A stretch of DNA of 64,000 bases, from positions 10,196 to 74,195 of the forward strand of contig JAVZGQ010000003.1 of the NCBI GenBank assembly GCA_038998585.1. The letters run 5' to 3'. This DNA is from Candidatus Aenigmatarchaeota archaeon. Lineage in GTDB: Archaea; Aenigmatarchaeota; Aenigmatarchaeia; CG10238-14; SCSR01. How positions within the stretch are numbered: the first letter of the stretch is position 1; each line of letters starts with the position of its first letter. The translations under genes and the position numbers were made by a program. Positions 6,028 through 64,000 of this stretch are shown here, in pieces. The notes under the pieces are model-generated. The model ran no database searches. It had not been told where the DNA came from and saw nothing but the letters and a program-made list of their open reading frames with translations.

Positions 6028-7473
6028 TCAATAAGATTTGGCTAAATAAACAACTTCTTTTGCTTCTTTTCCACAATAAATACAATTAGAAAATATTTTT
6101 TCTCTTTTAAGTGGAATTGTTCTAATAGTAGCCCCTGTTTCTTCTTTTATTTTTTCTTCACAATTTTCTTCACCACACCAACACACTTTTAGAAAGCCGC
6201 CCTTTTCTTCTAAAATTTTCTTAAATTCCTCATAATCTTTTGGAGTTGATATACTCTCTTTTAAAAATTCTTTTGCTTTTCTGAACAGATTCTCTTGTAT
6301 TTTTTCCATTAAGCTAAAAACCTTTTTTACAACTAGCTTATTTTTTACAGGAATTTTTTGGAAATCATCTCTTCTAACAATCACAACTTGTTTTTTCTTC
6401 AAATCTTTAGGTCCAATTTCAATCCTTATTGGTACGCCTTTAAGTTCCCACTCGTTGAACTTCCATCCAGGAGTATAGATTTCTCTATCATCTAGAAAAG
6501 CGGAAGCACCAGCCTTTTTCAATTTTTCTAACAATTCTTTAGCTTTTTTCAAGACTTTACGCTTTTCTTCCTCTTTATAAAATATAGGTACAATCACAAC
6601 TTGCAGGGGTGCAATTTTTGGTGGTAGCACAAGTCCCTTATCATCACCATGTACCATAACTACAGCTCCAATCAAGCGAGTGCTAATGCCCCAGCTAGTT
6701 TGCCAAACATTTTTTTCTTTTTTATCCTTATCTAGAAACTTTATTCCAAAAGGTTTTGAGAAATTTTGTCCCAAATTATGTGAAGTACCCATTTGTAAAG
6801 CTTTACCATCAGGCATCATAGCTTCCAAAGCTGTTGTGTAGAGAGCGCCTGCAAACTTTTCTTTATTGCTTTTTTTCCCCACAAGCACAGGAATTGCGAG
6901 GTAATTTTCTATGAGATCTTGATAAAATTTTAAAATTTTCATTACTTCTTCTTCAGCTTCTTCTTTTTTTGCATGTGCTGTGTGACCTTCCTGCCATAAA
7001 AATTCACTCGTTCTTATAAAAGGTTTGGTAGATTTTATTTCTGCTCTTGTTATGTTACACCATTGATTCAACAAAACCGGTAAGTCTCTCCAACTCCTTA
7101 TCCATTTTGAATAAAAATAATAAATTATTGTTTCTGAAGTTGGTCTTAATGCAAGCTTTTCACCAAGTTTGTTATTTCCAGAATGTGTCACCCAAAAAAC
7201 TTCTGGAATAAACCCTTCAAAATGTTTGGCTTCTTTCTTCAAAAAGCTTTCTGGTATAAACAAAGGAAAATAAGCGTTTTTGTATCCAGAATTTTTAAGC
7301 ATTTTGTCAAAAATTCCTTGAATCTTTTCCCATATCTCATAACCATACTCTCTTATGGCTATTGTGCCTTGTACGGGACCATAATCAGCTAAACCAGATT
7401 TTATAATCACTTGGGAATACCAGTCTGAAAAGTTTTCTGACTTCTTTACAGTAATTCCTTCTTGTTCAACCAT
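6028..7473 (-). CDS. proS: Prolyl-tRNA synthetase (archaeal/eukaryotic type)
   Basis: Contains FSDWYSQVIIKSGLADYGPVQG, class II motifs and a C-terminal zinc-type CWCG...CIYCG. Confidence 0.9.
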   Translation of the reverse strand: MVEQEGITVKKSENFSDWYSQVIIKSGLADYGPVQGTIAIREYGYEIWEKIQGIFDKMLKNSGYKNAYFPLFIPESFLKKEAKHFEGFIPEVFWVTHSGNNKLGEKLALRPTSETIIYYFYSKWIRSWRDLPVLLNQWCNITRAEIKSTKPFIRTSEFLWQEGHTAHAKKEEAEEEVMKILKFYQDLIENYLAIPVLVGKKSNKEKFAGALYTTALEAMMPDGKALQMGTSHNLGQNFSKPFGIKFLDKDKKEKNVWQTSWGISTRLIGAVVMVHGDDKGLVLPPKIAPLQVVIVPIFYKEEEKRKVLKKAKELLEKLKKAGASAFLDDREIYTPGWKFNEWELKGVPIRIEIGPKDLKKKQVVIVRRDDFQKIPVKNKLVVKKVFSLMEKIQENLFRKAKEFLKESISTPKDYEEFKKILEEKGGFLKVCWCGEENCEEKIKEETGATIRTIPLKREKIFSNCIYCGKEAKEVVYLAKSY

Positions 7474-9739: not shown

Positions 9740-12700
9740 GTGATAACAAAAATTGAGCTTAAGAATTGGCGTTCTCATTTTGATTCAAAGTTAGAATTTT
9801 CTCCGGGTACAAACATTTTATTGGGTCCCATAGGATCGGGTAAATCTCTTCCTTATAGCGAAACAATTTTAATTAAAGATTCTGTTTGGAGAAAAAGACT
9901 TATTGGGGAAGTCGTTGAGGTTGCTTTAAAAAAAGCTAGAAATGTTATAGTCAAAGGAGATAGCATCTACACAACTGAAAATGCGGAGAATTTATTCGTC
10001 CAATGTTTTAATCCTGAAACATTTAAACTAGAAACTAGAAAAGTCAAAGCTTTTATTAAACATAAATCTCCTAAAAAACTAATTCAGATTAAAACAAGAA
10101 GTGGTAGAAGGATAACGATAACTAAAGATCATTCTATTCTAATTGTAACCGAAAAAGGTATTTTGCCTGAGAAGGGAGAAAACATAAAACCCGGGGTTTT
10201 TATACCGAGTGTCAGATCACTAATCTTCGGCACTGTTGAAGAAAAAATCGATTTTCAATCCATCTTACCAGATTTTAGGTATAAAGCACTAATGGGCTTG
10301 AGATTTTTTGATGACAGCCTCCCATTTTCAAATGCTACAAAACCAACAATCAAACTTTTTGAATTTACTGATATTAGAGGAGTGCGATCAGATTGGAAAA
10401 CTTTACCTGTATTTTTTTATAAATTGTTTGAAAATGATTCTGATAACAAATGTTTTTCAAATTGGGTATTTAATATTAGTGATGAAAATCTTGAGAAGAT
10501 GATTTCAACATATTTTGAAATATACGGACGGGTAACTAAAGATGGTAAGGTTGTGTATTCTTCCCAAAATCTTAAATTTATAGACGCGCTCATGACTTTG
10601 CTATGTAGGTGGAAAATTATAACAACAATAAGAGAAAAGAAAATTAAAGGTAAAAATTATTATGAATTGGTAGTTATTCCTAAACACGTGCCTATTTTTG
10701 CTTCCCACATGAATTTCCTAAGTAATGATAAACAAAATAGACTAAATGAAATTGTTAAGATTACAAATAATCAAAGAAAATGGGATGGTATAGATATAAT
10801 CCCAAACTTCTTCATAAGGAAACTCTTACATTCTTTAATTTTAGAGTATCGTTCAAATACAAAAAAAGATCAAGGGGCACGTGAGTTATTTAAACATTTT
10901 TACAGTTGTATGAAAAATGAAAATATAGGAAGGGAAAAACTAAAAAGAATTTTGTCGTTTATACTTGAAAAGTATAAATTTAAAACCAAAAATTTTGAAA
11001 GACTAGAGAAAATAGTTGATAGTGATGTATTCTTTGATAAGGTGATTGAGATAAAAGAAATTCCGGCTGAAAGTGAGTGGGTATACGACATTTCTGTAGA
11101 AGGACTTGAGAATTTCGTTGCTGGTACAGGAAATCTAATTGTCCATAACAGCTCTATCCTAGATGCAATTTGTTTTACTCTTTTTGGGACTTTTCCGAAT
11201 CTTCAAGCCAAGAAGATAAAGCTTGACGATGTGATAATGAATAAGCCTGTTGAAAAGACAAAAGCAGAAGTTGAGCTCCATATTCAGTCGAATGGAAAGG
11301 ACTATTCTGTTAGAAGAGTTATAGAAAGAGGAAAAGGCACAACTTACTCTGAGATAAGAGAAGATGGCAAACTTCTTGAATCACCGAATGCACAAAGAGT
11401 CACCGAAAAGATTGAAGAAATTTTGAAGGTTGATTATGAACTTTTCAGTAAAGCAATTTATTCAGAGCAAAACGCTTTAGACTACTTCTTGACTATAGCA
11501 AAAGGGCAGAGAATGAAGAAGATAGACGAACTATTGGGAATAGACAAATTTGAGAAAGCTAGAGCATCTTCTGTAACTTTAAAGAATAGGGTCGCTGATA
11601 TAAAGCTTGGGATTGAAAGTAGTTTGGGACAAATAGATGAAGAAGAATTGAAGAAAAATTTGCTTGAGCTCAAAGATATAATTTCAAAACTTCTTTTAGA
11701 AAGAGAACAATTGGAGAAAAATCTCGAGAAAATGGAAAGTGAAAGGAAAAGAATTGAGCAGGAATTACTCGAACTCAAGAAGATTAGAGACGGAATAGAA
11801 ATTTTGAGAAGGGAAGAGAGAGGGAAGGAAAGTGCTCTGGAAGAGACTTTTGCTGCTATAAAGTCTATAGAAGAGGCTACAAGAGGGTTTTCTAAGGAAG
11901 AGGTGGAAAGAGAGATAAGAGAATTTGAAGATTTTTTAAACAAAAAAGAGGTTGAGCTAAAACAAAAGAAGAATTGTTATGAGAAGATTTTATCTGAAAT
12001 TTCTCAGGCGAATGGTAAGATTAAATTCCTGAGTGAAGAAAAAATTTCTAGGCTAAAACCAGTCTTAGAAGAAAAAATTGAAATCAAGAGAGAGCTCGAC
12101 CGTCTCTTAAGCATAACAGGAGAAAACATAGAAGAACAAATTGATAGAAGCAAGAATAATTTAGAAAAGATAAATTATGATATTTCTTCGACGAGTACTC
12201 TAATAAGTGATATGAATTCTTTCATCCAGCACCTGTCTTCTTCAGAAAGCAAGTGCCCTGTTTGCGATTCAGTGTTAACACAAGAAAAGAAAGTTCTATT
12301 GATTAAGCAAAAACAAGACCAGTTGAAGAAATTGCAAGACAAATTAGCAAATTTGCTCATAGATAAGCAGAGTGCAAGCGATAGTTTGATAAAGCTTGAG
12401 AACGCTGCCAAAAAAATAGGGGAGATGTACATTCAGGTTAAAGATTTGCAGGATGTGCAAAAGGAGTTTGAAGATTCTAAAAAAGTTTGGGTTGAATTGA
12501 ATGATTTTGTAAAAAAGGCAAAGATGGAATTAGAGGTGATTAAGAAAGAAATCGATTGTATTGAAAATGAAATTAAAGAAAGTGAGATTAAAAAGAGGAA
12601 ATACGAAATCTTGCTAATTCAGCTTCAAGATTTGGAGGATAGAAAAAAGAGAATTGAAGAATTGAAAAAAGAAATTGAAAAAATCAAGAAAAAAATTATA

Positions 12701-13414
12701 GAAGAGGAGGCTAAACTTGAAGGAAAAGATTTAAATACTATGGAAAAGGATCTTAGGTCAATGATAAGCAAGGAGAGTGAGGTTAGAGCAAGATTAGGAT
12801 CTTACGATTCTTTAATTCAAGAAAAGAAAACTAGAGAAAAAGAGCAAGAAGAAAAATTGAAAGAATTTGAAAAACAAAAGAAAGAAATTCAAAGACTTGA
12901 CAGGTTAGTAAAAGATTTGGAAGTTTTCAACTTGGCATTGGAAGAAACACAGGTTGAGCTCAGGAACAATTTTGTTGAAGGAGTTAATTCAACTATGGGC
13001 AAGCTTTGGAGCACACTTTATCCTTACCGCGATTTTATTTCATTGAGGCTGAACACTGAAGAAGGGGATTATATATTACAATTACAAGGAAGAGATGGAA
13101 ATTGGATTAATGTGGAAGGAAATGTTTCTGGCGGAGAAAGAAGCATAGCTTGTTTAGCCTTGAGGGTTGCCCTGGCCCTAGCTTTAGCACCTCAGCTAAG
13201 AATTCTTGTTCTGGATGAACCAACTGCAAATCTTGATGCCAAAGCTATAACAGAGCTTTCAATAACTTTAAGAGAAAGAATAAATGATTTCATAGACCAA
13301 ACCTTCCTTATAACTCATCAACCAGAACTTGAAGATGCTGCAACAGGCTCAATCTACAGGCTGGAAAGAAATAAAGATGAAAACGAACCAACCAAAGTTA
13401 TAAGAATTGACTAA
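9740..13414 (+). CDS. rad50: Rad50 ATPase, interrupted by a P-loop intein
   Basis: The Walker A motif GPIGSGK/SSILDA is split by the intein. Also present: long coiled coils, the zinc hook CPVC, the signature VSGGE, Walker B LVLDEP and the H-loop ITHQ. The start codon is GTG. Confidence 0.92.
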   Translation: MITKIELKNWRSHFDSKLEFSPGTNILLGPIGSGKSLPYSETILIKDSVWRKRLIGEVVEVALKKARNVIVKGDSIYTTENAENLFVQCFNPETFKLETRKVKAFIKHKSPKKLIQIKTRSGRRITITKDHSILIVTEKGILPEKGENIKPGVFIPSVRSLIFGTVEEKIDFQSILPDFRYKALMGLRFFDDSLPFSNATKPTIKLFEFTDIRGVRSDWKTLPVFFYKLFENDSDNKCFSNWVFNISDENLEKMISTYFEIYGRVTKDGKVVYSSQNLKFIDALMTLLCRWKIITTIREKKIKGKNYYELVVIPKHVPIFASHMNFLSNDKQNRLNEIVKITNNQRKWDGIDIIPNFFIRKLLHSLILEYRSNTKKDQGARELFKHFYSCMKNENIGREKLKRILSFILEKYKFKTKNFERLEKIVDSDVFFDKVIEIKEIPAESEWVYDISVEGLENFVAGTGNLIVHNSSILDAICFTLFGTFPNLQAKKIKLDDVIMNKPVEKTKAEVELHIQSNGKDYSVRRVIERGKGTTYSEIREDGKLLESPNAQRVTEKIEEILKVDYELFSKAIYSEQNALDYFLTIAKGQRMKKIDELLGIDKFEKARASSVTLKNRVADIKLGIESSLGQIDEEELKKNLLELKDIISKLLLEREQLEKNLEKMESERKRIEQELLELKKIRDGIEILRREERGKESALEETFAAIKSIEEATRGFSKEEVEREIREFEDFLNKKEVELKQKKNCYEKILSEISQANGKIKFLSEEKISRLKPVLEEKIEIKRELDRLLSITGENIEEQIDRSKNNLEKINYDISSTSTLISDMNSFIQHLSSSESKCPVCDSVLTQEKKVLLIKQKQDQLKKLQDKLANLLIDKQSASDSLIKLENAAKKIGEMYIQVKDLQDVQKEFEDSKKVWVELNDFVKKAKMELEVIKKEIDCIENEIKESEIKKRKYEILLIQLQDLEDRKKRIEELKKEIEKIKKKIIEEEAKLEGKDLNTMEKDLRSMISKESEVRARLGSYDSLIQEKKTREKEQEEKLKEFEKQKKEIQRLDRLVKDLEVFNLALEETQVELRNNFVEGVNSTMGKLWSTLYPYRDFISLRLNTEEGDYILQLQGRDGNWINVEGNVSGGERSIACLALRVALALALAPQLRILVLDEPTANLDAKAITELSITLRERINDFIDQTFLITHQPELEDAATGSIYRLERNKDENEPTKVIRID
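9845..11149 (+). mobile_element. Intein (435 aa, Ser1 ... His-Asn / Ser+1) with a degenerate LAGLIDADG-like homing-endonuclease region
   Basis: Block A is SLPYSETILI, block B is GRRITITKDHSILIV (TxxH) and blocks F/G are WVYDISVEGLENFVAGTGNLIVHN followed by S. The central region ISTYFEIYGRV...SSQNLKFIDALMTLLCRWKI resembles a dodecapeptide motif. Removing it restores GSGKSSILDA. Confidence 0.88.
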
Positions 13415-20576: not shown

Positions 20577-20744
20577 ATGATAGGTGATGTTGGAGTCGAA
20601 ATAGAGAGGCTTAAAGCTAAAAGAGCGAAGATAAGTAGTAAAATAGCTTCAACAAGAAATTTCGAAACAAAAGAAAAATTGAAAGAAGAGCTCGCGAGAA
20701 TAGAATCTCAAATAAAAATCTTGGAAAATATGAAAAAGTTTTAG
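20577..20744 (+). CDS. Small coiled-coil hypothetical protein (55 aa)
   Basis: The ATG at 20577 lies 6 nt after GAGGT. The heptad-like sequence is EIERLKAKRAKISSKI...LKEELARIESQIKILE. This start is preferred over the ORF-track start at 20547. Confidence 0.4.
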   Translation: MIGDVGVEIERLKAKRAKISSKIASTRNFETKEKLKEELARIESQIKILENMKKF

Positions 20745-23700
20745 CGAGATTTTTTCATCTTTTTTAGCTCTTCCCATTTTTTCTTAAGTTCTTTCCAAGG
20801 TCTGTGAACTTCCTCTTCCTTAGCCCTAACTTTAGCAATCGGACTTTCTTCTTTAACCGGCCAAAATAGGAATGCTAATACTCCAGCAATTATTATTCCG
20901 AGAGCCAATAATATTGGCCAAATCAAAAAGCCCCCCGCCCAATTACCAGCTATGGCAAAAAGAGAAAGACCAGGAGAAATAGCTCTAAACTGATAATAAT
21001 CTTGAGTTTCATTAATTTTTACTGTTTGAAGTTTTTTCCAAGTGTTGTTGGAAAATCTGTAGATGGATATAGTTGAAACATCTATGCCATTTTCAATTAC
21101 CCAAGACTTTTCAATCTGAAAGTCTATGAGTACATTTGTTATATCGTTTTCATGTAAGTTTACTGATGAAATTTCCAAGTATTTTAGGACTAGACCTTCT
21201 TCTGTTTTTATAGCAGGAGGAACACTTTCTGGTTTTATACCCTCTTTTACAGTTAGGGTGACATTACTTATGTTCTTATTAACAAAAAGAGCTATTTTCC
21301 AAATTTTTAAGGTGTCGGCATAAGGAATAGTGATGATGGCTGGGGACTCAGGAGTAATCAACTGAATTTGAAAACTAACATTTACAGGCATGGCTGATGG
21401 TGGTAGGGTAGTTGTGGTAGTTGTAGTAGAAGTGGTGGATGTAGTAGTTGTCATATTGATGGTGTTTGGTAGTGTAGTGGTGGTTGTTATTGTACTTGTA
21501 GTTTCTGGTACCGAGACTGTTGTTTCAAAGGAAGATGAATTAACAAACCACAGACCAGAGGTTCCTTTTATCCATGATGTACAAGTTCCCTCAGTGTTGC
21601 CAGCTGTTATTTTCCAAGCAACATAACATCCGGTATAATTGTAAGGAGAAAGAGTGAAATTAACTTTATCAGAAGGAGTCCCCACTTTCACACAACTTGT
21701 ATTGAAGAAACTCACGCTACTTATATAGTTACATTTTTCAAATGCGATTTGGACATTGTCGGCATATCTCGGCCCAAGATTCTTTATCGTTACGTTAATT
21801 ATTCCGCTACTCCCATTTTGTAATTGAGAAGGATAATCAATTAAATTCATCAACAACCCCATATCATCAACTATTAGCATCTTATTTACAGGATCATCAA
21901 GACTCTCTCCTCGATAAACATTTGATGAATTAGAGCTCAAGTTTTCTGATGTGAGATTTATGTGAATGTAATACTTACCTCCCGGTAATTTTTGCGGAAT
22001 GGTTAGGTTGACGATCCAAATATCATCAGATAATGTTATTTTTGGATGAGTTATATTTTTAAACACTATATTTCTGACAAAATATGAAGCATTTGGTTCG
22101 AACAGCCAAACATTAGTTATATTATCAAGACTGAAAATCGAGCCCGCTGTCACATTTGTGCCATTTACATATTGGATTAAAAAACTTGCGTTAACCCAAC
22201 TGTTCTTTGAAGACACATTAACCGTTTCATTCCCATAGTCCTCACTTTTTAAATCTAATATTTTAACATTCCACTGATCTGTGAGATTTAGCTTTATGGA
22301 AATATTGATATTGGAATATGGGCGGCTAGTCAGGTTTGGATCTGTTGGATGAGTAGAATTAATATAAATCCAACCTTCATACAAATTTTTCGGCATCGAG
22401 CTGTTGAAAGAAACATTAATTTCGATTAAACTTGAATTATGAGGTTGAATTTCTGTTGTTGTATTGAAACTCAAATTTGCAAAGTAAGAGCAGCTGGTAC
22501 AATTTAATCTTGTAGAGTTAATAAACATTGTAGTTAGATTGTAATCACCAAAATTGCTTATGTTTATGTAAAATGTTCTAGTTAAAGTTGAATTATAATT
22601 TTCTAGAATTGTGATTTCTTTTTTGTCAAGTGTGTTATTAACTATAAGCATTGGAGCGGTGATATTAACTTTGATAGGAATTCTTATAATTCCATCATTA
22701 CTTGATTTGTAATCTAAAAAGCCTTCATAAGTCCCACTAATAACTTTTTCAGGAATTGTGAAATTGAGTTCTATTGTTTTTGTTGAATTTTCTTTTCCAA
22801 CAACATCAAAAGTTTTGTTTATATAATTTGTGAAGTTTGTTTTTATCCATTCGCTTGAATTAACAACAAAGGCCTGAATTGTAAGGCTGTATTCCGGTGT
22901 TTCTGTTGTAGTGTTTTTGACCACAACCTTCCAGAATCCATCTTTCGCCGAGTTAATTGTTTCTATGAATTCTTCTCTTTCAACATTACAAATCTCAGCA
23001 TTTTTAGACTTGTTGAATGAGCTTTCAATTTCAATTCCATCAGGATTGTAGAGAGTGATATTATAAGCTCCTTTTCCAGTCCAATTAAGATTAATTTTAA
23101 GGGTTGGCATGATCGAAGAATTCGGTAGGAAGAATGTGAAATTTCCCGGGCTATTTCCATAAAATCTCTTGACATAAAAGATTTGGCTACTTTCATTCAC
23201 AATTTCGACTGAAATACCCCCTTCGTTGTTTAATTTGAAAACTTTGGTTATGGGGATTTTGCTTACATTTTGGAGACCAAAATCAAATTCTTGCTCGCTT
23301 GAATTGAGTGTTAATGTGATAATCCTTCCATTGTACTCCGAGGTAGAATTTCCGTAAATTCTTATTTCAAATATTGTGGTGCTGTTCTCAATAAAATTGT
23401 ACATCAAACTTTCATTTCCCTCTTTGTTTATAGATTTTGCTAGGAGTTTCGGTTGTGCGCCGGTTGTGAGAAGGAAAATGTCCAAATCCTTGGCAGTAAA
23501 ATTCAGGTTTAAAGTCATTGTTGTAACATTTGGTATATTTGAAAGATTAAAATAGAAAGAGTGGTATTGGTCAGAATTTTCAAAAATTTTGCCATTAAAT
23601 TCACCAATCCCGGTTTCGGAACTCAAATTTATCGGAAGATCGATTATTACTTCCAAGCTTGTATTTTCATTCGAGTTTGAAGAGTTTTTTATTGTGAATG

Positions 23701-24463
23701 AACCGTAATATTTACCAGGCGCACATGGTAACAACAACCCACCATGACAATATTTAAGTAAGGTGTAGTTTGTGTTGCTGAAAGATGGTAAAAAATTTAT
23801 AGTGTTAAACCCACCAGTGTTGTTTTTTACATAAACATATAGTCTTGAATTTTCTTGTGAATAATTTGCAGGTACAGGTCCTGTGCCATTAGCAAAAATA
23901 ACAGAAATATTATAAGAAGAATTAGATAAGACAGAGAAGTTTACTTGGTAGTCGTTGGTCCAATTGAGATAAACGATTCTTGGTACTAAACCAAATTCTT
24001 TACTTGTGCTTATTTTTTCTGGTAATACAGTAACAGAAGTATTTGTTGTGTTTATGACACTGGAATTATCTAACATAGTAAAACTGAGATTCACCGTTTG
24101 GAAGATTAGAGGTATGGTGAGGTTAAATGAAAACCAGGCAGAAGAGTTTGCGTCTATCAAACTAAAGTCACTCCTCCATGTTAGATTTCTTGCATCAGAA
24201 TCGTAACTGAAGTTTGAAATTGTGTTGGTCGAATTGCTACCGTTGATAAATTCCAATACATCAGGCAAAGTTATGTTTAGTTCAACAATACTTGCTGTAG
24301 AGTTTGTATTGTTAATAGTGAAATTGAATCCCCAATTGCTAGTTCCACTTATGCAGTTTGTTGAGTTTGGGACTATATTAAAACTCGCGGCATAAACGAA
24401 GGAAAATAAAATTAACAATATTGAACTTAAAATTAAAGGCTTCAAAACTTTCATATTTCTCAT
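20741..24463 (-). CDS. Giant N-glycosylation-sequon-rich surface (S-layer-like) protein with a PGF-pre-PGF-like domain and C-terminal membrane anchor
   Basis: The Sec signal is MKVLKPLILSSILLILFSFVYA|A. I count about 85 N-x-S/T sequons by hand. A Thr-rich linker (TTTTTLPNTINMTTTTSTTSTTTTTTT) is followed by ...ISIYRFSNNTWKKLQT...YYQFRAISPGLSLFAIAG, a TM helix and a Lys-rich tail. Confidence 0.75.
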   Translation of the reverse strand: MRNMKVLKPLILSSILLILFSFVYAASFNIVPNSTNCISGTSNWGFNFTINNTNSTASIVELNITLPDVLEFINGSNSTNTISNFSYDSDARNLTWRSDFSLIDANSSAWFSFNLTIPLIFQTVNLSFTMLDNSSVINTTNTSVTVLPEKISTSKEFGLVPRIVYLNWTNDYQVNFSVLSNSSYNISVIFANGTGPVPANYSQENSRLYVYVKNNTGGFNTINFLPSFSNTNYTLLKYCHGGLLLPCAPGKYYGSFTIKNSSNSNENTSLEVIIDLPINLSSETGIGEFNGKIFENSDQYHSFYFNLSNIPNVTTMTLNLNFTAKDLDIFLLTTGAQPKLLAKSINKEGNESLMYNFIENSTTIFEIRIYGNSTSEYNGRIITLTLNSSEQEFDFGLQNVSKIPITKVFKLNNEGGISVEIVNESSQIFYVKRFYGNSPGNFTFFLPNSSIMPTLKINLNWTGKGAYNITLYNPDGIEIESSFNKSKNAEICNVEREEFIETINSAKDGFWKVVVKNTTTETPEYSLTIQAFVVNSSEWIKTNFTNYINKTFDVVGKENSTKTIELNFTIPEKVISGTYEGFLDYKSSNDGIIRIPIKVNITAPMLIVNNTLDKKEITILENYNSTLTRTFYINISNFGDYNLTTMFINSTRLNCTSCSYFANLSFNTTTEIQPHNSSLIEINVSFNSSMPKNLYEGWIYINSTHPTDPNLTSRPYSNINISIKLNLTDQWNVKILDLKSEDYGNETVNVSSKNSWVNASFLIQYVNGTNVTAGSIFSLDNITNVWLFEPNASYFVRNIVFKNITHPKITLSDDIWIVNLTIPQKLPGGKYYIHINLTSENLSSNSSNVYRGESLDDPVNKMLIVDDMGLLMNLIDYPSQLQNGSSGIINVTIKNLGPRYADNVQIAFEKCNYISSVSFFNTSCVKVGTPSDKVNFTLSPYNYTGCYVAWKITAGNTEGTCTSWIKGTSGLWFVNSSSFETTVSVPETTSTITTTTTLPNTINMTTTTSTTSTTTTTTTLPPSAMPVNVSFQIQLITPESPAIITIPYADTLKIWKIALFVNKNISNVTLTVKEGIKPESVPPAIKTEEGLVLKYLEISSVNLHENDITNVLIDFQIEKSWVIENGIDVSTISIYRFSNNTWKKLQTVKINETQDYYQFRAISPGLSLFAIAGNWAGGFLIWPILLALGIIIAGVLAFLFWPVKEESPIAKVRAKEEEVHRPWKELKKKWEELKKMKKSR

Positions 24464-24536: not shown

Positions 24537-25124
24537 ATGAAACTTGTTTGGTTTTTTATCATCTTGACGACAATTTTTATTGCAGGCTGTGTGGGGAAGA
24601 AAATGTCAAATTTGGAAGGAAAGAGAGTTTTGATGATAATAGCTCCAAACAATTTTAGAGATGAAGAATTGCTTAAACCAAAAGAAATTCTGGAAAAAGC
24701 AAGAGCAGAAGTTAAAGTGGCTTCCAAGGGTGTCAAAGAAGCAAGAGGAATGATGGGTTCAATTGTGAGTGTTGACCTTGATATAAGTGAAGCTGAAGTT
24801 CAAAACTATGATGCAATAATTTTTGTTGGTGGCACAGGAGCAGAAATTTACTTCAATGATTCAACAGCTTTAGGTATAGTTAGAAAGGCTTATGAGCAAG
24901 GTAAGGTTATTGGGGCAATTTGTATAGCCCCTTCAATTTTAGCTAATGCCGGAATTCTTGAAGGTAAGAAAGCAACATCCTGGCCTAGCGAGACAAGTAA
25001 TTTAGAAGCTAATGGGGTGAGGTATACCGGTGAGTCAGTAACTGTAGATGGAAAAATAATAACAGCCAAAGGACCAGAAGCTGCAAGTCAGTTTGGCAAA
25101 GCTATAGCCGAAGCTTTAAGTTAA
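24537..25124 (+). CDS. DJ-1/PfpI family protein with a lipoprotein-type signal
   Basis: MKLVWFFIILTTIFIAGC is a lipobox-like IAGC. The DJ-1/PfpI nucleophile elbow is GAICIAPSILANAG. The ATG at 24537 is preferred over the TTG at 24534. Confidence 0.75.
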   Translation: MKLVWFFIILTTIFIAGCVGKKMSNLEGKRVLMIIAPNNFRDEELLKPKEILEKARAEVKVASKGVKEARGMMGSIVSVDLDISEAEVQNYDAIIFVGGTGAEIYFNDSTALGIVRKAYEQGKVIGAICIAPSILANAGILEGKKATSWPSETSNLEANGVRYTGESVTVDGKIITAKGPEAASQFGKAIAEALS

Positions 25125-25155
25125 AATGCCCCCGAGGGGATTTGAACCCCCAACC

Positions 25156-25175
25156 TTACCGAGAGCTAAACTCTT
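25156..25175 (-). other. tRNA intron 2 (20 nt, position 44/45), bulge-helix-bulge motif
   Basis: The central helix is GCCG:CGGT, with 3-nt bulges TTA and AAG and the inner helix AGAG-tttag-CTCT. Splicing leaves the variable loop TGGTT, compared with TGGTC in the other tRNA-Arg. Confidence 0.7.
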
Positions 25176-25213
25176 AACGGCTTAGGAAGCCGCTGCTCTA
25201 TCCAAATTGAGCT

Positions 25214-25228
25214 TTCCTCACAATAGTT
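25214..25228 (-). other. tRNA intron 1 (15 nt, position 8/9), relaxed bulge-helix motif
   Basis: Acceptor nts 3-6 (CCTC) pair with intron GAGG to form a 4-bp helix. The helix is flanked by G7-U8-A on the 5' strand and an AAA bulge just before the D-stem GCTC. Confidence 0.65.
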
Positions 25229-25676
25229 ACGAGGGCATCAACGGATAGCTATATTTTTTACCTAAGTATTTTATATTTTGTTTTAACATTTTAGCTTTCC
25301 TCCTAATAACAAAAGTTTTTATTTCTCTCTTTTTTATTTTTTTACAAATGTAAAAATTTGTTTTTTACCAAATATCTTTAAATAAATAATTAAATAAGTT
25401 CATTAAATTTCTTAGCTCATCCTTTGTTATTTTTAAAATAAATTGAAAGATTAGTAAGACATTGGTTTACAAAGTATACTTTGGGGCACACAAGATTTGG
25501 ATTTAACGAGATTTACTATACATATGAAATGGGAGTGGGTAAAGTAAAATAATAGAGCTGAAAATAAAAAACGAATACAAAAAGAGTCTCTTAAAAATAT
25601 TTTAAGCATAATTAACCAGTCCACATGACAGTAATTTTTTATTAAATTTATACAATCAGCTTAATTAATTATAATT

Positions 25677-48203: not shown

Positions 48204-48230
48204 GCCCCCGTAAATATCGAGCCCCCGTAA
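48204..48230 (+). repeat. Direct duplication of the tRNA 5' exon (GCCCCCGTAA twice, 17-nt period)
   Basis: GCCCCCGTAA occurs at 48204-48213 and again at 48221-48230. Both copies can pair with the intron GGGG and the D-stem GCTC. Confidence 0.7.
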
Positions 48231-48307
48231 GTATGGGGAAAGCTCAGTTTGGATAGAGCGGCTGCCTTCTAAGCAGATGGTCGAGGGTTCAAATCCCTCC
48301 GGGGGCA
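48221..48307 (+). tRNA. tRNA-Arg(TCT) with a 12-nt non-canonical intron at 8/9; no encoded CCA
   Basis: The acceptor GCCCCCG pairs with CGGGGGC. Other elements are the D-arm GCTCAGTTTGGATAGAGC, anticodon loop CTTCTAA and T-arm GAGGG-TTCAAAT-CCCTC. Removing 48229-48240 gives a 75-nt cloverleaf. Confidence 0.8.
48229..48240 (+). other. tRNA intron (12 nt, position 8/9), relaxed bulge-helix motif
   Basis: The outer helix is GAGC:GCTC and the central helix is CCCC:GGGG. The 3' bulge is AAA, and the 5' GTA merges into a small loop. Confidence 0.65.
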
Positions 48308-53238: not shown

Positions 53239-54369
53239 TTAACCCTTAAAAATGAATTTCTCGACTTGGTTTTTTGCCTTTTCCCTCTTCTTTTGATGTT
53301 TTTTCAAGAAATTGTTCAGTTTTTCAATTAGGATATTTTTCAGTTCTCCTGTGAGAAGTCGACCACTTTTATAGTCTTCTCTAATCTTCTCAAGCTTTTT
53401 ATCATCCTCTTCAAAAAAAGTTAGCCATTGGTAAGAAACATCTATATCAGGATTCCCTCCTCTCTTTCTATGCTCTTCTACCGTGGGCTGGCCACCAGAG
53501 AAAGCATATTTGACTATTTTCTCTCTTACAACTTCTGGGCTGTCTGTGGTGAAAATTGCAGTTTGTTTTTCTGAAGAAGACATTTTCCCTTGTTGCATCA
53601 TTCCTCCTAAACCTGGCAAGAATATGCAATGAATTATTGCGGGCTTGTAAAAACCAAGTTTGGGTAAAACATCTCTAGCTATCCTGAAATGAGGATCTTG
53701 ATCTACGGCCAAAGGCACCAAGCAAGGGATATTTTTTCTTTTTAAAACTGAAGGAAGAAGAGCCGGGACAGCTTGCATTGCTGTGTAAAAAATTGAACCG
53801 ATGTTTGTTTCGTTTGTAAAACCAAAAACAGCTTTAACTGTGGAAAAAGTTATTTTCTTAGCTATCTTGCAAGCTTCTTTATACATCAGATTGGCATGAA
53901 TAGTATCAACAAGAAAATAAGTTTTCTTTGGGTCAAACCCTAGGGCTATGACATCGAGCATATTTTCGTAAGTATATTTTTTTGTATCTTCCAAGGTGAG
54001 CTCGCTATGAAACAAAAATTTCTCTTCGTCTGGAAACTGAAACCAAAGCTCTACATCGAGCTTGTCTTGTAACCATTTTGTAAACATCCATGGGACTAAA
54101 TGACCCATGTGAATAGGACCAGAAGGTGCCCTTCCTGTATAGAGAAAAAACTTGTTTCCATTTTCATATTCATCTAAGGCCCAATCTAAGTCGCGATGAG
54201 CAAAAAATATTCTTCTTCTCAAAAAGTGGTGAAGTTCTTTTGTATGTTTTTTTATTCTTTCCAAGAGCTTTTCATCAAGTGAAGCGATTCCAAACTGCTT
54301 CATGAGCTTCTCATAATCTATTTCTCCTTTAACTTCCCATGGTGTTACAATAAATTTCTCCCCCTCCAT
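53239..54369 (-). CDS. trpS: Tryptophanyl-tRNA synthetase (archaeal/eukaryotic type)
   Basis: Contains VTPWEVKGEIDYEKLMKQFG, YTGRAPSGPIHMGHLVPWMFTKWLQ, AVDQDPHFR, KMSSS and AFSGGQPTVEEHRKRGGNPDIDV. Confidence 0.88.
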   Translation of the reverse strand: MEGEKFIVTPWEVKGEIDYEKLMKQFGIASLDEKLLERIKKHTKELHHFLRRRIFFAHRDLDWALDEYENGNKFFLYTGRAPSGPIHMGHLVPWMFTKWLQDKLDVELWFQFPDEEKFLFHSELTLEDTKKYTYENMLDVIALGFDPKKTYFLVDTIHANLMYKEACKIAKKITFSTVKAVFGFTNETNIGSIFYTAMQAVPALLPSVLKRKNIPCLVPLAVDQDPHFRIARDVLPKLGFYKPAIIHCIFLPGLGGMMQQGKMSSSEKQTAIFTTDSPEVVREKIVKYAFSGGQPTVEEHRKRGGNPDIDVSYQWLTFFEEDDKKLEKIREDYKSGRLLTGELKNILIEKLNNFLKKHQKKREKAKNQVEKFIFKG

Positions 54370-60685: not shown

Positions 60686-61345
60686 TCAACTCAACATTTT
60701 TTCGATTTTTTCAGTTAAGCCTATTGTGTGAGATTCCTTTTCTATAGTTAGTATTGCTTCTATTGCTTTACTCTTGTTTTCTCCTCTTATCCATATGTAA
60801 CCATTTCTTCCAGTATAAATCTCACAGTTAGTTTTCTTTTTTATTATGTTTATCATACTTCCACCTTTACCTATTATTCTCGGAACTTTATTCGGATTTA
60901 TCTTTATTAGAACCCCGCCATAGAGCTTCCTGCTTCCTATGTTTCTCATCGAGACTTGAATTGTTTTATCTTTTGTAACTTTCGAAACAGTACAAAACAC
61001 AACATCGTCAACATCAAAATACCTGCTTATATCTGTTCTTGAGATATCAACAAATTCTCCAACACCTTCGGCCAAAGGCAAGAAAGCAACATAAGGCGAA
61101 TTTATATCAATCATCCATCCAGAAATTTCTACACTCAAAATCTTTCCTATTACTCTGTCTCCAACTCTTGGCATATATGCTCCAGCCAAGGGTATAACAA
61201 AAACCTCGTTTTCCCCTATATTTGGAATCCCTAAAACCTTGGAAAAAACCTTCTCTCCCTCAAGATAAACACCATAACCAACTTTTCTTCCAGCTTTTTC
61301 GCAAAGTAGCTCTCCAGGTAAAACTATTTCTCTTTTTTCACTCAT
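60686..61345 (-). CDS. rrp4: Exosome complex RNA-binding subunit Rrp4
   Basis: An N-terminal domain is followed by S1 (PRVGDRVIGKILSVEISGWMIDI) and KH (IPRIIGKGGSMINIIKKKT). Confidence 0.88.
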   Translation of the reverse strand: MSEKREIVLPGELLCEKAGRKVGYGVYLEGEKVFSKVLGIPNIGENEVFVIPLAGAYMPRVGDRVIGKILSVEISGWMIDINSPYVAFLPLAEGVGEFVDISRTDISRYFDVDDVVFCTVSKVTKDKTIQVSMRNIGSRKLYGGVLIKINPNKVPRIIGKGGSMINIIKKKTNCEIYTGRNGYIWIRGENKSKAIEAILTIEKESHTIGLTEKIEKMLS

Positions 61346-62052
61346 ATGTCCTCCCTCTTTATGACTTTTGATTCAAAATTGCCGTGAGTTAAGGAAGATA
61401 GCTTCTGGAAAAGCTCTTCCTGAACACCAGCCAATAACTCTATGTTTACTACCAAACTACCATCTCCCAACCATTCTTCATTAACAATATTTCCTGCGTT
61501 CTTAAGTATGTTGTAAGAGCTTCCAGAAAATTGTGGGGGTATTTTTATTTGTAACACAACTTTCTGGAATTTTATAGGCAATATTGTTTTTATAACTTTT
61601 AAAACTTTATCTACTTGAAGCTCAGCATCAATAAAGGGGTCTATGTTAATTCCGACTTGCTCCATGGCATTGATTATTCTTTGAGGAGGGTGTGGCGTAT
61701 TTGTTTGGGGGTTTATCCCCCTTCTTGAAATAATATTCGCTATTTGTATTTTTTTCTGTTCTGTCATCTTTCTTCTTTGTTCGGTTGTTAGCTGAATTTC
61801 ACCCTCTTTTATTATCTTTTCAGCTATTTTCATTATATCTGTTGTGCCAAAAACTTTTTGAAGGTCTTGCTCAGATACAGCTTCACCTTTTTTCGAATCC
61901 TTATAAATAACGGGATAAGCCAGTAAATCATCCATACTCACTTTTATCCCTTTCTTTACTTCCAGAGCCTTCTCAGGATCTACTAGTATCTCAAACCTTT
62001 GTCCAGAACGCTGTAATCTAGCTATGACAGCCTTATCTACTCCTACAGTGAT
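61342..62052 (-). CDS. sdo1: SBDS-family ribosome maturation protein; conserved N-terminus lacks a canonical start codon
   Basis: The frame is open from 62061 and encodes VDKAVIARLQRSGQRFEILVDPEKALEVKKG upstream of the first GTG/ATG. The proposed start is ATC at 62052, 5 nt after AAGGTG. The minimal ORF-track call is 61342-61941. Confidence 0.7.
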   Translation of the reverse strand: MTVGVDKAVIARLQRSGQRFEILVDPEKALEVKKGIKVSMDDLLAYPVIYKDSKKGEAVSEQDLQKVFGTTDIMKIAEKIIKEGEIQLTTEQRRKMTEQKKIQIANIISRRGINPQTNTPHPPQRIINAMEQVGINIDPFIDAELQVDKVLKVIKTILPIKFQKVVLQIKIPPQFSGSSYNILKNAGNIVNEEWLGDGSLVVNIELLAGVQEELFQKLSSLTHGNFESKVIKREDI

Positions 62053-62080
62053 ATCGACACCTTAATAAAATATCAGCAAC

Positions 62081-62822
62081 TTAAAATTTTATCTTTTTGA
62101 TTTCTTCTTCGGAAAGTCTCTTGAACTTTTTGTCTTCAACTCTTATAATAGCTATATCGGCTTCGCCATCTTTTTCTGTTTTTGAGATTATATCTAGAGC
62201 AATTTTCAAGGCCTCTGTTTCACTTAAGTTAGGCTTCCATCTTTGTCTCAAAATCTTGTTTGCCGGAGCAGAGCCCCTTCCAATTACATAAGCATACCAT
62301 TCATAAAGCATACCAGAAGGATCTACCTCTATCAGATGAATTCCAGTCGCATCTACACCGCCAACCAGAAATGAGACTCCATAGGGCCTTAAGCCCGCAT
62401 AAAGTGTTGAAATTTGCATCCTGTCGGCAATGCTTCTTGCAAGGCTCCAAATATCCATGGCCTCTTCGTAAGTTATTCTATGGATTTGGGCTCTAACTCT
62501 TGCTTGATTTGTAAGTACACGAGCGTCTGCAAGCAAGCCAGCAGCAACGGCAGCAGCGTGGTCATCTATTTGGAAAATCTTTTCTATAGATTCAGGAACC
62601 ATCAAAGGCGTTTTTGGTTTGGCTGTAGCAAAAAGAATTCCGTCCTTGAAAACTATTGCCATGCAAGTTGTTCCTCTCTTTACCGCTTCTCTCGCGTATT
62701 CGACTTGAAAGAGTCTTCCATCCGGGCTGATTCCGCACTAGTTAGCAGTAATACTAACTAATTAAACGGCAAGTTGACTGAGTAGAGATTAAGCTCTACT
62801 CATTTGTCCTGTCATAGCCCAT
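62081..62822 (-). CDS. psmA: Proteasome alpha subunit, interrupted after codon 7 by a 64-nt intervening sequence
   Basis: The first segment is ATG GGC TAT GAC AGG ACA AAT (MGYDRTN) at 62822-62802. After 64 nt, CGISPDGRLFQVEYAREAVKRGTTCMAIVFKDG... continues in another frame. The rest is a typical alpha subunit. Confidence 0.8.
62738..62801 (-). other. 64-nt intervening sequence in psmA with two hairpins at its borders
   Basis: Hairpin 1 is (T)GAGTAGAG-cttaat-CTCTACTC(A). Hairpin 2 is (AT)TAGTTAG-tattactg-CTAACTA(GT). The element contains in-frame stops for both flanking frames. Confidence 0.7.
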
Positions 62823-63115
62823 ATTTCTGCGAAGAGGAGCTTTTACTCACCCTTCAATTCAGGAAGGATTTCAGGCATCTTTTATCACCAATGCAAGAAA
62901 TTCACTTATTTTCATATACACCCCCATTTCTCACTATATATTTTTGAATTAAGTTATATTTTAACTTTAAAAATACTAGAACTTTTTCTTTTTTTTAGAA
63001 TTAAATTAACTTTTTCTAAAAATTTAGAAGAATGAAAATCTGAAATTGATTAATTTTTGTGACATTCTTCACAATCTTTTATAAGTTAGTATGTTTTTTT
63101 GATGTAAATTTCTAA

Positions 63116-63466
63116 CTATTTTTTCAACCCCTTTATGCTTCCAGAAATTTTCATGATTTTGAAAACAATCCTAGAGTCCCCAAGCCTTGATATCAGACCT
63201 AAACCAGCCACAACCTTTTCCACAACTTTATTATTGCACTTTATTACACCGATTTGTTCTTTTTCATTCCACAAATTTTTTATTATTCGAAGAGAAAGCT
63301 CAGAAACACCAAGTTCACCATAAAAGTCTAGAAAGGAATTCCAAATTGAATTTTCCAAGTCAACATAGCTTACAGGCCCTTCAGAAATAACTTTAAAATT
63401 TACATATCTTTCCTTTTCTCTCAAACTTGGGAGCAAAATCTTTGGTCTATCTGTTTTCTTACCCAA
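63116..63466 (-). CDS. rnp2: RNase P protein component Pop5 (Rnp2)
   Basis: Contains LPSLREKERYVNFKVISE...SIWNSFLDFYGELGVSE...GVIKCNNKVVEKV. Confidence 0.8.
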   Translation of the reverse strand: MGKKTDRPKILLPSLREKERYVNFKVISEGPVSYVDLENSIWNSFLDFYGELGVSELSLRIIKNLWNEKEQIGVIKCNNKVVEKVVAGLGLISRLGDSRIVFKIMKISGSIKGLKK

Positions 63467-64000
63467 TCCTTCTCACCCCAGGCATAATCCAATTTCCACT
63501 TCTTCTCTCAATGACTTTTTCGATGATTTCTTTTGGAATTTCAGATACAGCTCTCTTTCCGTCTTTAAGTTCTAACCCTAACAAAGTTGCAATAGAAGCC
63601 AAGCAAAGAGGATCTCTGAGCTCCCAGTGACTTACAGCTCCAGAACAGACTATAATCTTAGCTTTGTATTTTTTGGCAAGCTGTACATTTCTCGCTATGT
63701 TTGCCAAAATTTTCGATCTGCTAACTTTATTTGATATCAATATTTCTCTCAGGTTTATTTCTATGGCAACATCATTTTTTGCTGCAAATTTCACACTAAC
63801 ATGATCTAGACCAGAATCGTTTCTCTGATATTCCGGATGCGTTAAAATGTCGACTTCAGGCGTTTCGCATGCAACTCTGTTCATTTCTATATCTCCTCCC
63901 CTTGCCAAAAGCAAATCAAAACCTCTTCTTTTATCGGCTAAATATTTTAACTCTTTTGTGTCTCTTGCCTCAAATCCTAAATAAACATCGATCCCAACTT
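63459..64000 (-). CDS. rnp3: RNase P protein component Rpp30 (Rnp3); 5' partial, frame open to window edge
   Basis: Contains ...GFEARDTKELKYLADKRRGFDLLLARGGD...VDILTHPE...GLDHV...IEINL. There is no stop between 63914 and the end of the window. Confidence 0.75.
   Translation of the reverse strand, partial: VGIDVYLGFEARDTKELKYLADKRRGFDLLLARGGDIEMNRVACETPEVDILTHPEYQRNDSGLDHVSVKFAAKNDVAIEINLREILISNKVSRSKILANIARNVQLAKKYKAKIIVCSGAVSHWELRDPLCLASIATLLGLELKDGKRAVSEIPKEIIEKVIERRSGNWIMPGVRRIG

Follow-up and report, generated by a model that had tools for sequence, protein, structure and literature searches.

How can a tRNA gene that is interrupted twice, and at neither point in the canonical anticodon-loop site, still give a normal product? 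This question is raised by a tRNA-Arg(CCU) gene in a 64-kb stretch of contig JAVZGQ010000003.1 from a tiny Candidatus Aenigmatarchaeota archaeon of hot springs; this whole stretch is called the window below. The gene occupies 110 nucleotides (nt) of the minus strand, from 25236 to 25127 in the sense direction, and its sense sequence is composed of an exon, GCCCTCGT, an intron, aactattgtgaggaa, a second exon, AGCTCAATTTGGATAGAGCAGCGGCTTCCTAAGCCGTT, a second intron, aagagtttagctctcggtaa, and a third exon, GGTTGGGGGTTCAAATCCCCTCGGGGGCA, with a run of T residues directly 3′ (Table 1). From its sequence this run is likely to be an archaeal transcription stop. We conclude that the locus is very probably a functional tRNA-Arg(CCU) gene with two minimal, protein-spliced bulge–helix–bulge (BHB) introns.

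The gene has the 7-bp acceptor stem (with a U5·G68 wobble), the D-arm, the anticodon arm and the T-arm. In Sprinzl numbering, with two extra positions (17a and 20a) in the D-loop, the inserts fall at 8/9 and 44/45, and the canonical 37/38 site of this tRNA is uninterrupted. When both inserts are deleted in silico, ARAGORN recognizes a 75-nt tRNA-Arg(cct) with a normal cloverleaf, and the variable loop becomes UGGUU. The interrupted gene is handled poorly by the same kind of tool. ARAGORN calls no tRNA in the whole 64-kb window, nor does it recognize one when given the precursor alone, even in intron mode, and the Rfam tRNA model gives 32.6 bits (threshold 29) over model positions 9–63 only, with a 21-nt insertion in the variable region. 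A permissive Rfam scan of the window gives no additional tRNAs. The first-pass annotation of this DNA, made from the letters alone, had warned that scanners might miss or mis-score the gene, as they do; it also placed the gene in exactly the interval 25127–25236, to which we add the correction that the strand is the minus strand.

Both junctions can be located by comparison with relatives, which we label L001 onwards. The PfpI–tRNA–M29–M24 arrangement is conserved among them, and the tRNA-Arg(CCU) at the syntenic spot is uninterrupted in L001/L003, L006 (83% M29 identity) and L007 (80%). A single D-loop base separates the gene of L001/L003 and L006 from the predicted spliced product (74 of 75 positions identical), and the gene of L007 agrees with this product at 71 of 75. 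The intronless L001 ortholog scores 65.6 bits across the complete Rfam tRNA model. Since uninterrupted syntenic orthologs are nearly identical to the spliced product, both junctions are fixed. The earlier claims of a 110-nt gene with full arms and inserts of 15 nt at 8/9 and 20 nt at 44/45 are thus confirmed by in silico splicing together with the intronless ortholog, and the claimed absence of a 37/38 intron is also borne out. The two-intron reading and both splice positions are upheld by the intronless orthologs and, in addition, by inserts of the same geometry in other relatives.

These other inserts are scattered over the molecule. L004 has a 16-nt insert at 33/34, and L002/L005 combine a 16-nt insert at this site with a 19-nt one related to the 44/45 insert of the window. 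Inserts of 12–20 nt occupy the canonical 37/38 site in L008, L017, L019 and L028, 25 nt are found at 33/34 in L010 and L011, and 11–12 nt are found in the D-loop in L009 and L029. L012 and L016 are interrupted at 30/31 and at a second site, and L013 and L016 at 40/41. The 8/9 intron is absent in the orthologs L001–L007. Among genes whose neighbouring proteins are at least 80% identical there are four intron states: none, 33/34, 33/34 with 44/45, and 8/9 with 44/45. Introns in this gene therefore appear, from sequence comparison, to be evolutionarily short-lived; a neighbour-joining tree of one protein is too weak for exact counts of gain and loss. Introns at different sites share 5′ ends: AAGATTAT at 33/34 in L002 resembles AAGATTTT at 44/45, and AAGTAT is the start of both the 8/9 intron of the Arg-UCU gene of the window and the 33/34 intron of L010. 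Introns may have moved from site to site by transposition, a process proposed for Thermoproteales, or the shared ends may simply mirror a preference of the splicing endonuclease EndA for an AAG start.

The exons behave quite differently from their surroundings. They are identical between the window and its relatives at 69–74 of 75 positions, whereas the third-codon positions of the adjacent M29 gene near the tRNA are 50–66% identical and the flanks, at about 50%, are essentially unalignable. This difference shows purifying selection on the exons and speaks against a pseudogene. Covariation between orthologs is seen in the acceptor stem as well (U5·G68 versus U5:A68).

The splice sites of the whole series follow one geometry. 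In the EndA register, a 4-bp helix is formed and each cut falls 2 nt 3′ of its strand, leaving 3-nt staggered bulges. We scored exon positions −6 to −3 against intron positions −6 to −3 for every curated insert. The 19 inserts, at seven positions (8/9, 20a/21, 30/31, 33/34, 37/38, 40/41 and 44/45), form a mean of 3.74 of the four pairs of this central helix (H), and 14 are perfect. Shuffled inserts form 1.43 ± 0.20 pairs, and none of 5000 shuffles attains the observed mean; shifting the register by 1–3 nt gives 0.9–2.3 pairs. Fifteen of the 19 inserts end in AA. Both sites of the tRNA-Arg(CCU) gene have the 4-bp central helix, complete at four of four pairs, with the splice sites 2 nt 3′ of its strands, and a shuffled insert attains this with P = 0.005 at 8/9 and P = 0.013 at 44/45. 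Neither site has the strict hBHBh′ form, in which an outer helix (h) and an inner helix (h′) of at least 2 bp each flank the central one.

At the 44/45 site, the central helix is GCCG:CGGU, in which CGGU of the intron pairs with G39–G42. The bulges are UU/a and aa/G45 (the slash marks the cut), and the inner helix is AGAG(U):(G)CUCU. The local minimum free energy (MFE) fold around the site is the motif itself. The inner helix has 4–5 bp and the outer helix none, as no exon–exon helix continues past the AAG bulge; as modelled, the motif is a relaxed HBh′ form, which is a recognised sub-type. The 19-nt 44/45 intron of L002/L005 has CGGC in place of CGGU, which turns G39:U into G:C and keeps the pairing with G39–G42. 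The site had been described beforehand as a good bulge–helix–bulge, and all of the pairings listed for it and the UGGUU loop hold; the outer helix is missing, so that it is HBh′ and not the full hBHBh′.

At the 8/9 site, GAGG of the intron pairs with C3–C6 (CCUC:GAGG), the 5′ side reads GU/a and the 3′ bulge is AA/A9. The inner helix consists of two weak pairs only, while the outer helix comprises two exon pairs and 11 pairs with the 5′ leader. In the predicted fold the motif is a relaxed hBH/BHL form, likewise a recognised sub-type, with its 5′ splice site in a weak helix or loop. Folding without the leader made this motif appear thermodynamically implausible, an objection that was dropped once the leader was folded in by adding 24 nt of it to the precursor. 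The leader segment ctatccgttga (25248..25238) is antisense to D-arm nt 18–22 and 12–16 and forms a 5+6-bp outer helix. The 5′ part with leader folds at −17.4 kcal/mol into the leader:D-arm helix, G1:C11 and C2:G10, the AAA bulge, CCUC:GAGG, and a weakly paired terminal loop that contains the 5′ site. The full-length MFE structure with leader contains the 8/9 motif, and the leader conformer and the cloverleaf are isoenergetic (−34.0 versus −34.4 kcal/mol). When the 8/9 intron is removed in silico, the MFE structure switches to the acceptor stem and D-arm. The motif first proposed for this site, with GAGG:CCUC, GUA and AAA, is therefore correct in its parts and barer than the one modelled here, in which the leader adds the outer helix.

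The association between leader and intron extends to other genes. The leader:D-arm duplex of the tRNA-Arg(CCU) gene has an energy of −11.0 kcal/mol compared with −3.7 ± 1.7 kcal/mol for shuffles, one of 1000 of which attains it. In four other single-copy 8/9-intron genes, whose leaders have different sequences, the duplex lies at −9.3 to −17.0 kcal/mol (z of −2.7 to −4.9), compared with −1.0 to −6.7 kcal/mol (z of +1.4 to −2.1, mostly near zero) in 17 genes without an 8/9 intron. An antisense leader is thus present in five of five single-copy 8/9-intron genes and in none of the 17 others. Three further 8/9 genes (Arg(UCU) of the window, L032 and L039) have no antisense leader, and exon 1 is duplicated in tandem in each. 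Counting contiguous leader:exon pairs does not clearly separate the groups (Mann–Whitney p = 0.06); these three genes use the duplicated exon 1 instead, and the shuffle test on duplex energy is the better measure. Taken with the folding models, we consider it reasonably probable that 8/9 splicing includes a step that depends on the leader.

A metagenome scan with a pattern requiring an insert at 8/9 in this tRNA body type returned eight contigs with 8/9 inserts of 11–23 nt, all with four of four central pairs and an AAA 3′ bulge. Among these eight introns, exon CCUC always occurs with GAGG and exon CCCC always with GGGG, a perfect covariation. The leaders of the Arg tRNA genes in L035, L038, L037, L033 and L034 are antisense to their own D-arms. 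The L035 leader is complementary at about 20 of 22 positions, counted by eye; the 5′ folds reach −33.5 kcal/mol in L035 and −27.1 kcal/mol in L037, and the differences between these two leaders preserve pairing. The L035-type leader has a superficial likeness to a divergent tRNA fragment, but it is not followed by an anticodon arm on its strand. Two to three additional inserts, with uncurated boundaries, apparently interrupt the area of the anticodon arm and variable region in the Arg-UCU genes of L032, L033, L035, L037 and L039, which also have the 8/9 intron.

The paralogous tRNA-Arg(UCU) gene of the window shows the other arrangement. Its exon 1 occurs in tandem, as GCCCCCGT at 48204–48211 and at 48221–48228, the copies sharing GCCCCCGTAA.TAT. 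Either copy leads to an identical mature tRNA, with an intron of 29 or 12 nt. The MFE structure (−46.4 kcal/mol) pairs the 3′ acceptor strand with the upstream copy and has the splice motif built by the downstream one; when the 5′ part is folded, it is the upstream copy that makes the motif, together with an outer helix of 8 bp. L032 and L039 have a similar exon-1 duplication with a 10-nt period.

Regarding the enzyme, L033, L035, L037 and L038 each carry an 8/9-intron Arg tRNA and an EndA gene about 5 kb apart on the same contig. The tblastn probe was an M. jannaschii EndA sequence, and it is validated by its hits of 1e-22 to 1e-24 to true EndAs in L033–L038. The 400-aa EndA aligns with the epsilon2 EndA of ARMAN-2 (PDB 4FZ2) in phmmer with E = 3.1e-89, residues 31–400 matching residues 25–387 of 395, at an identity of only about 45–50% over the aligned region. 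The Pfam catalytic and N-terminal domains of the 400-aa protein fall within its central unit. Homologues of 381–442 aa are labelled Aenigmatarchaeota or Micrarchaeota, and some come from four hot-spring metagenome-assembled genome (MAG) assemblies that share an accession series with the relatives of the window. In ARMAN-2 EndA, experiments have assigned catalysis to Y236, H251 and K282, RNA binding to R275 and W384, and a specificity loop to Y160 and K161 (PMC3488258, PMC12397907). The residues Y236/H251/K282, R275/W384 and, in the specificity loop (ASL), Y160/K161 are invariant in our alignment of 11 Aenigmatarchaeota, Micrarchaeota and related EndAs, in which the ASL reads GVYK or GTYK. By its sequence, the EndA encoded by Aenigmatarchaeota is of the epsilon2 type, a single chain of three units (alphaN, alpha and betaC) collinear with that of ARMAN-2. 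The searchable literature reports epsilon2 EndA from Micrarchaeota only, not from Aenigmatarchaeota, and Aenigmarchaeota are not among the groups that it samples. The first-pass annotation had named a broad-specificity endonuclease, for example heterotetrameric or epsilon2, and had proposed that its type be identified elsewhere in the genome. For the phylum the prediction holds as the epsilon2 type with an intact specificity loop, and the heterotetramer is not the enzyme concerned; the type was identified by sequence on the four 8/9-intron contigs, and the window itself yielded no EndA.

These observations suggest the following course of maturation. The primary transcript would begin 12 nt or more before the mature 5′ end, and its leader segment ctatccgttga would pair with the 5′ half of the D-arm, building the outer helix together with G1:C11 and C2:G10. 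C3–C6 are complementary to GAGG at the 3′ end of intron 1 and are predicted to pair with it, placing the 3′ splice site of this intron in the AAA bulge and the 5′ site 2 nt beyond the helix, in a weak helix or loop, as a relaxed hBH/BHL substrate. Separately, G39–G42 would pair with CGGU of intron 2, and with the UU/A and AA/G bulges and the closing AGAG:CUCU helix this would give a relaxed HBh′ substrate. An epsilon2-type endonuclease, which is encoded in the phylum, would cut both sites, and an RtcB-type ligation would join the exons. Excision of the 8/9 intron would make the acceptor stem and D-arm the most stable structure; RNase P would then remove the leader, and CCA would be added.

Several points weigh against this picture. 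We infer splicing itself from sequence and comparison. At 8/9, the 5′ splice site has no clean 3-nt bulge, the predicted flanking pairs being G·U, U·G and A:U, and without the leader the 8/9 conformer (−20.7 kcal/mol) is about 14 kcal/mol worse than the cloverleaf (−34.6 kcal/mol). With the leader, the shuffle support for this gene is moderate on the MFE measure, as 18 of 2000 shuffled leaders attain the MFE, and the mechanism would presuppose a transcription start at or upstream of −12. At 44/45, there is no outer helix, and the splice conformer (−31.7 kcal/mol), in which the anticodon stem is melted, lies about 3 kcal/mol above the cloverleaf with an insert hairpin (−34.6 kcal/mol). Neither EndA nor RtcB was found in the 64-kb window by tblastn for EndA and by Pfam scans of 46 open reading frames (ORFs), which covered neither the small ORFs nor three larger ones (at least 130 aa) close to the 3′ end (61342–63914); the evidence on the enzyme derives from other Aenigmatarchaeota contigs, not from this genome. 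Lastly, a second, uninterrupted tRNA-Arg(CCU) gene may exist elsewhere in the genome.

Such a second copy beyond the window would suit a decaying pseudogene, whose inserts are disabling and never removed while the other gene supplies tRNA-Arg(CCU). The failure of the scanners and the Rfam score barely over threshold would also suit it. A decaying gene would not be expected to keep exons identical to those of orthologs at 74 of 75 positions while nearby neutral sites stand at 50–66%. Nor would random insertions show both inserts in the exact 4-bp-helix register with AA/N bulges (P = 0.005 and 0.013), both intron types recurring in other lineages with compensatory changes, or a co-adapted leader. 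We regard a pseudogene as very unlikely. The proposal that the 20-nt segment is a class II-like variable arm kept in the mature tRNA, with only the 8/9 segment or neither removed, seems to us rather less probable still. It draws on the fact that ARAGORN accepts a 95-nt tRNA-Arg with a 25-nt variable region when the 8/9 insert alone is removed, and on the possible AGAG:CUCU hairpin, with which the cloverleaf is slightly more stable than the splice conformer (the −34.6 and −31.7 kcal/mol given above). However, the variable loop is a plain 5-nt UGGUU in the orthologs L001/L003, L004, L006, L007, L008 and L017, and membership of class II, which implies an extra arm conserved in orthologs, was rejected on this ground. 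To our knowledge, the archaeal class II tRNAs are those for Leu and Ser only. Furthermore, the complementarity of CGGU or CGGC to G39–G42 and the terminal AA are kept between the window and L002/L005; a variable arm has no use for either feature, and both obey the rule found at six other positions.

The source of the contig, a MAG, leaves room for a third explanation, that the inserts are artefacts of assembly or sequencing. Inserts of these types, related in sequence, recur at the same positions in independent assemblies from other samples, and the inserts are structured and are not repeats or chimeric junctions, so that we give this explanation next to no weight. We keep to the reading of the locus as a functional gene with two spliced introns.

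The host is a Candidatus Aenigmatarchaeota (DPANN) archaeon. The tRNA is flanked by genes with ordinary housekeeping roles in archaea (PfpI, M29 and M24 peptidases, a PIN/KH ATPase and HisRS), and the rest of the window is core chromosome, with eight aminoacyl-tRNA synthetase genes, aIF2-gamma, aIF5B, eIF6, exosome subunits, a proteasome subunit, FttA and Mre11/Rad50/HerA. A Candidatus Aenigmatarchaeota MAG encodes a protein with 100% identity to the M29 peptidase, and the sequences next in similarity (at most 83%) are labelled likewise. The flanking genes, the core-chromosome content and the M29 labels therefore identify the host as DPANN and not Thermoproteales. The 29 syntenic loci and their neighbouring proteins also all come from Candidatus Aenigmatarchaeota MAGs, and a Thermoproteales origin of the gene was rejected on the taxonomy of the neighbouring proteins and syntenic loci. 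The earlier comparison with Thermoproteales was apt in that such introns are known there, and it does not extend to this host.

Table 1. Positions of the features discussed. Coordinates refer to the window unless another contig is named.
Feature	Position	Strand	Description
tRNA-Arg(CCU) gene	25127..25236	-	three exons and two mini-introns; CCA not encoded
Exon 1	25229..25236	-	tRNA nt 1–8 (GCCCUCGU); C3–C6 are the central H helix strand of the 8/9 motif
Intron 1	25214..25228	-	15 nt at 8/9, between U8 and A9 (aacuauugugaggaa)
Exon 2	25176..25213	-	tRNA nt 9–44: D-arm, anticodon arm (CCU), U44
Intron 2	25156..25175	-	20 nt at 44/45, between U44 and G45 (aagaguuuagcucucgguaa)
Exon 3	25127..25155	-	tRNA nt 45–73: GGUU, T-arm, 3′ acceptor strand, discriminator A73
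5′ leader segment ctatccgttga	25238..25248	-	antisense to D-arm nt 12–16 and 18–22; predicted outer helix of the 8/9 motif
T-run	25123..25126	-	immediately after the discriminator base; overlaps the stop codon of the convergent PfpI gene
tRNA-Arg(UCU) paralog	48204..48307	+	8/9 intron, GGGG pairs with C3–C6 (CCCC)
EndA gene, L035	5063–6265		400-aa single ORF
EndA gene, L037	5946–7148		same flanking genes as in L035
EndA gene, L033	about 6540–7319		
EndA gene, L038	about 9797–10444		

Some further features of the window were recorded. The spacer from the 5′ end of the tRNA to the divergent M29 gene (25237–25676) is about 440 nt long and very AT-rich, compared with about 35–40 nt in L001 and L002, and L001 has an additional 73-aa ORF between PfpI and the tRNA. 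Adjoining the PfpI gene is a 1240-aa ORF (20741–24463, minus strand) with no Pfam match, and L001 and L002 have large ORFs (960 and 1221 aa) without Pfam hits at the matching position. Next to genes for an Mre11-like phosphoesterase and HerA lies a gene for a Rad50 homologue of 1224 aa (9740–13414, plus strand), in which an intein splicing domain (Pfam Intein_splicing, residues 89–470) is inserted behind the N-terminal P-loop region. A sub-threshold Rfam match to the C/D-box snoRNA family snR75 (53884–53974, minus strand; 24.3 bits, E = 0.67) lies within a Trp/Tyr-tRNA synthetase ORF and is probably due to chance.

Across the phylum, this one syntenic gene has at least seven insertion sites, four states in close relatives, and a leader tied to the 8/9 intron. 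It thus offers a natural data set for the question of gain and loss of protein-spliced tRNA introns and of the way in which new introns acquire a cleavable structure. It is possible, in a reading that we put forward only tentatively and hold to be on the doubtful side, that the Arg tRNA genes of Aenigmatarchaeota capture minimal BHB introns (11–25 nt) in the course of their birth, movement and loss, while sequence beyond the tRNA co-evolves to make each new intron fit for splicing. If this were true, the 8/9 intron would work only by means of a D-arm-antisense leader or, in three other genes, a duplicated exon 1, one copy of which holds the 3′ acceptor strand. Such leader-dependent splicing in cis would stand midway from ordinary introns to tRNAs that are split or permuted, and the shallow clade with its four states would provide the snapshots of intron insertion called for in a review (PMC4033280). 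On a practical level, the tRNA complements of Aenigmatarchaeota MAGs, and hence estimates of their completeness and decoding, are probably under-called.

The closest known system is that of ARMAN-1 and ARMAN-2 (Candidatus Micrarchaeum acidiphilum) and Mancarchaeum, where, as here, a DPANN host has short non-canonical introns with relaxed hBH, HBh′ and BHL motifs; their multi-intron tRNAs and epsilon2 EndA have been described (Fujishima 2011; Hirata 2012, PMC3488258; Kaneta 2018, PMC5829648; PMC12397907). The enzymes are alike as well, since both are single chains of about 390–400 aa with three alphaN–alpha–betaC units, and 4FZ2 is aligned end to end. The difference is that ARMAN belongs to another phylum, Micrarchaeota. 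The pairing of epsilon2 EndA with scattered relaxed introns thus extends from Micrarchaeota to a second DPANN phylum, which bears on the origin of the enzyme. An 8/9 intron with a leader-built outer helix was not found described for ARMAN in the literature searched, and no study of tRNA introns in Aenigmarchaeota was found in the searchable literature.

Thermoproteales share with the present genes small BHB introns at many positions, rapid gain, related intron sequences at different sites and the need for BHB-aware scanning. Their genes have up to three BHB introns each, at sites that include the acceptor stem (3/4) and the vicinity of the variable loop (45/46) (Sugahara 2007/2008; Fujishima 2010; PMC4090602, PMC4033280). 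The two reviews (PMC4090602, PMC4033280) do not list 8/9 or 44/45; the primary position tables lay outside the search. Thermoproteales differ in belonging to TACK and in using an (alpha-beta)2 EndA with a Crenarchaea-specific loop (CSL), whereas the host here is DPANN and its phylum has an epsilon-type enzyme. The split and permuted tRNAs of Nanoarchaeum equitans, Caldivirga, Thermofilum and Cyanidioschyzon resemble the leader arrangement in that leader or trailer sequence outside the tRNA pairs and builds a helix presenting the splice site to EndA. In contrast, the parts of the gene here are contiguous and in collinear order, the partner of the leader is an exon (the D-arm) and not the trailer of a second transcript, and removal of the leader would be by RNase P, not EndA. 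For contiguous genes whose intron lies at the acceptor/D junction, a leader-built BHB was not found described in the literature searched; the idea is at least implicit in tRNAscan-SE 2.0, which extends candidates by a 60-nt flank for BHBs near the ends. Non-canonical and multiple BHB introns, relaxed motifs, the presence of broad-specificity EndAs alongside them and rapid intron turnover are already documented in Thermoproteales, Nanoarchaeum, ARMAN and other DPANN. In summary, the gene taken alone is an unremarkable case of a known phenomenon, and its value lies in the comparative series and in the association with the leader.

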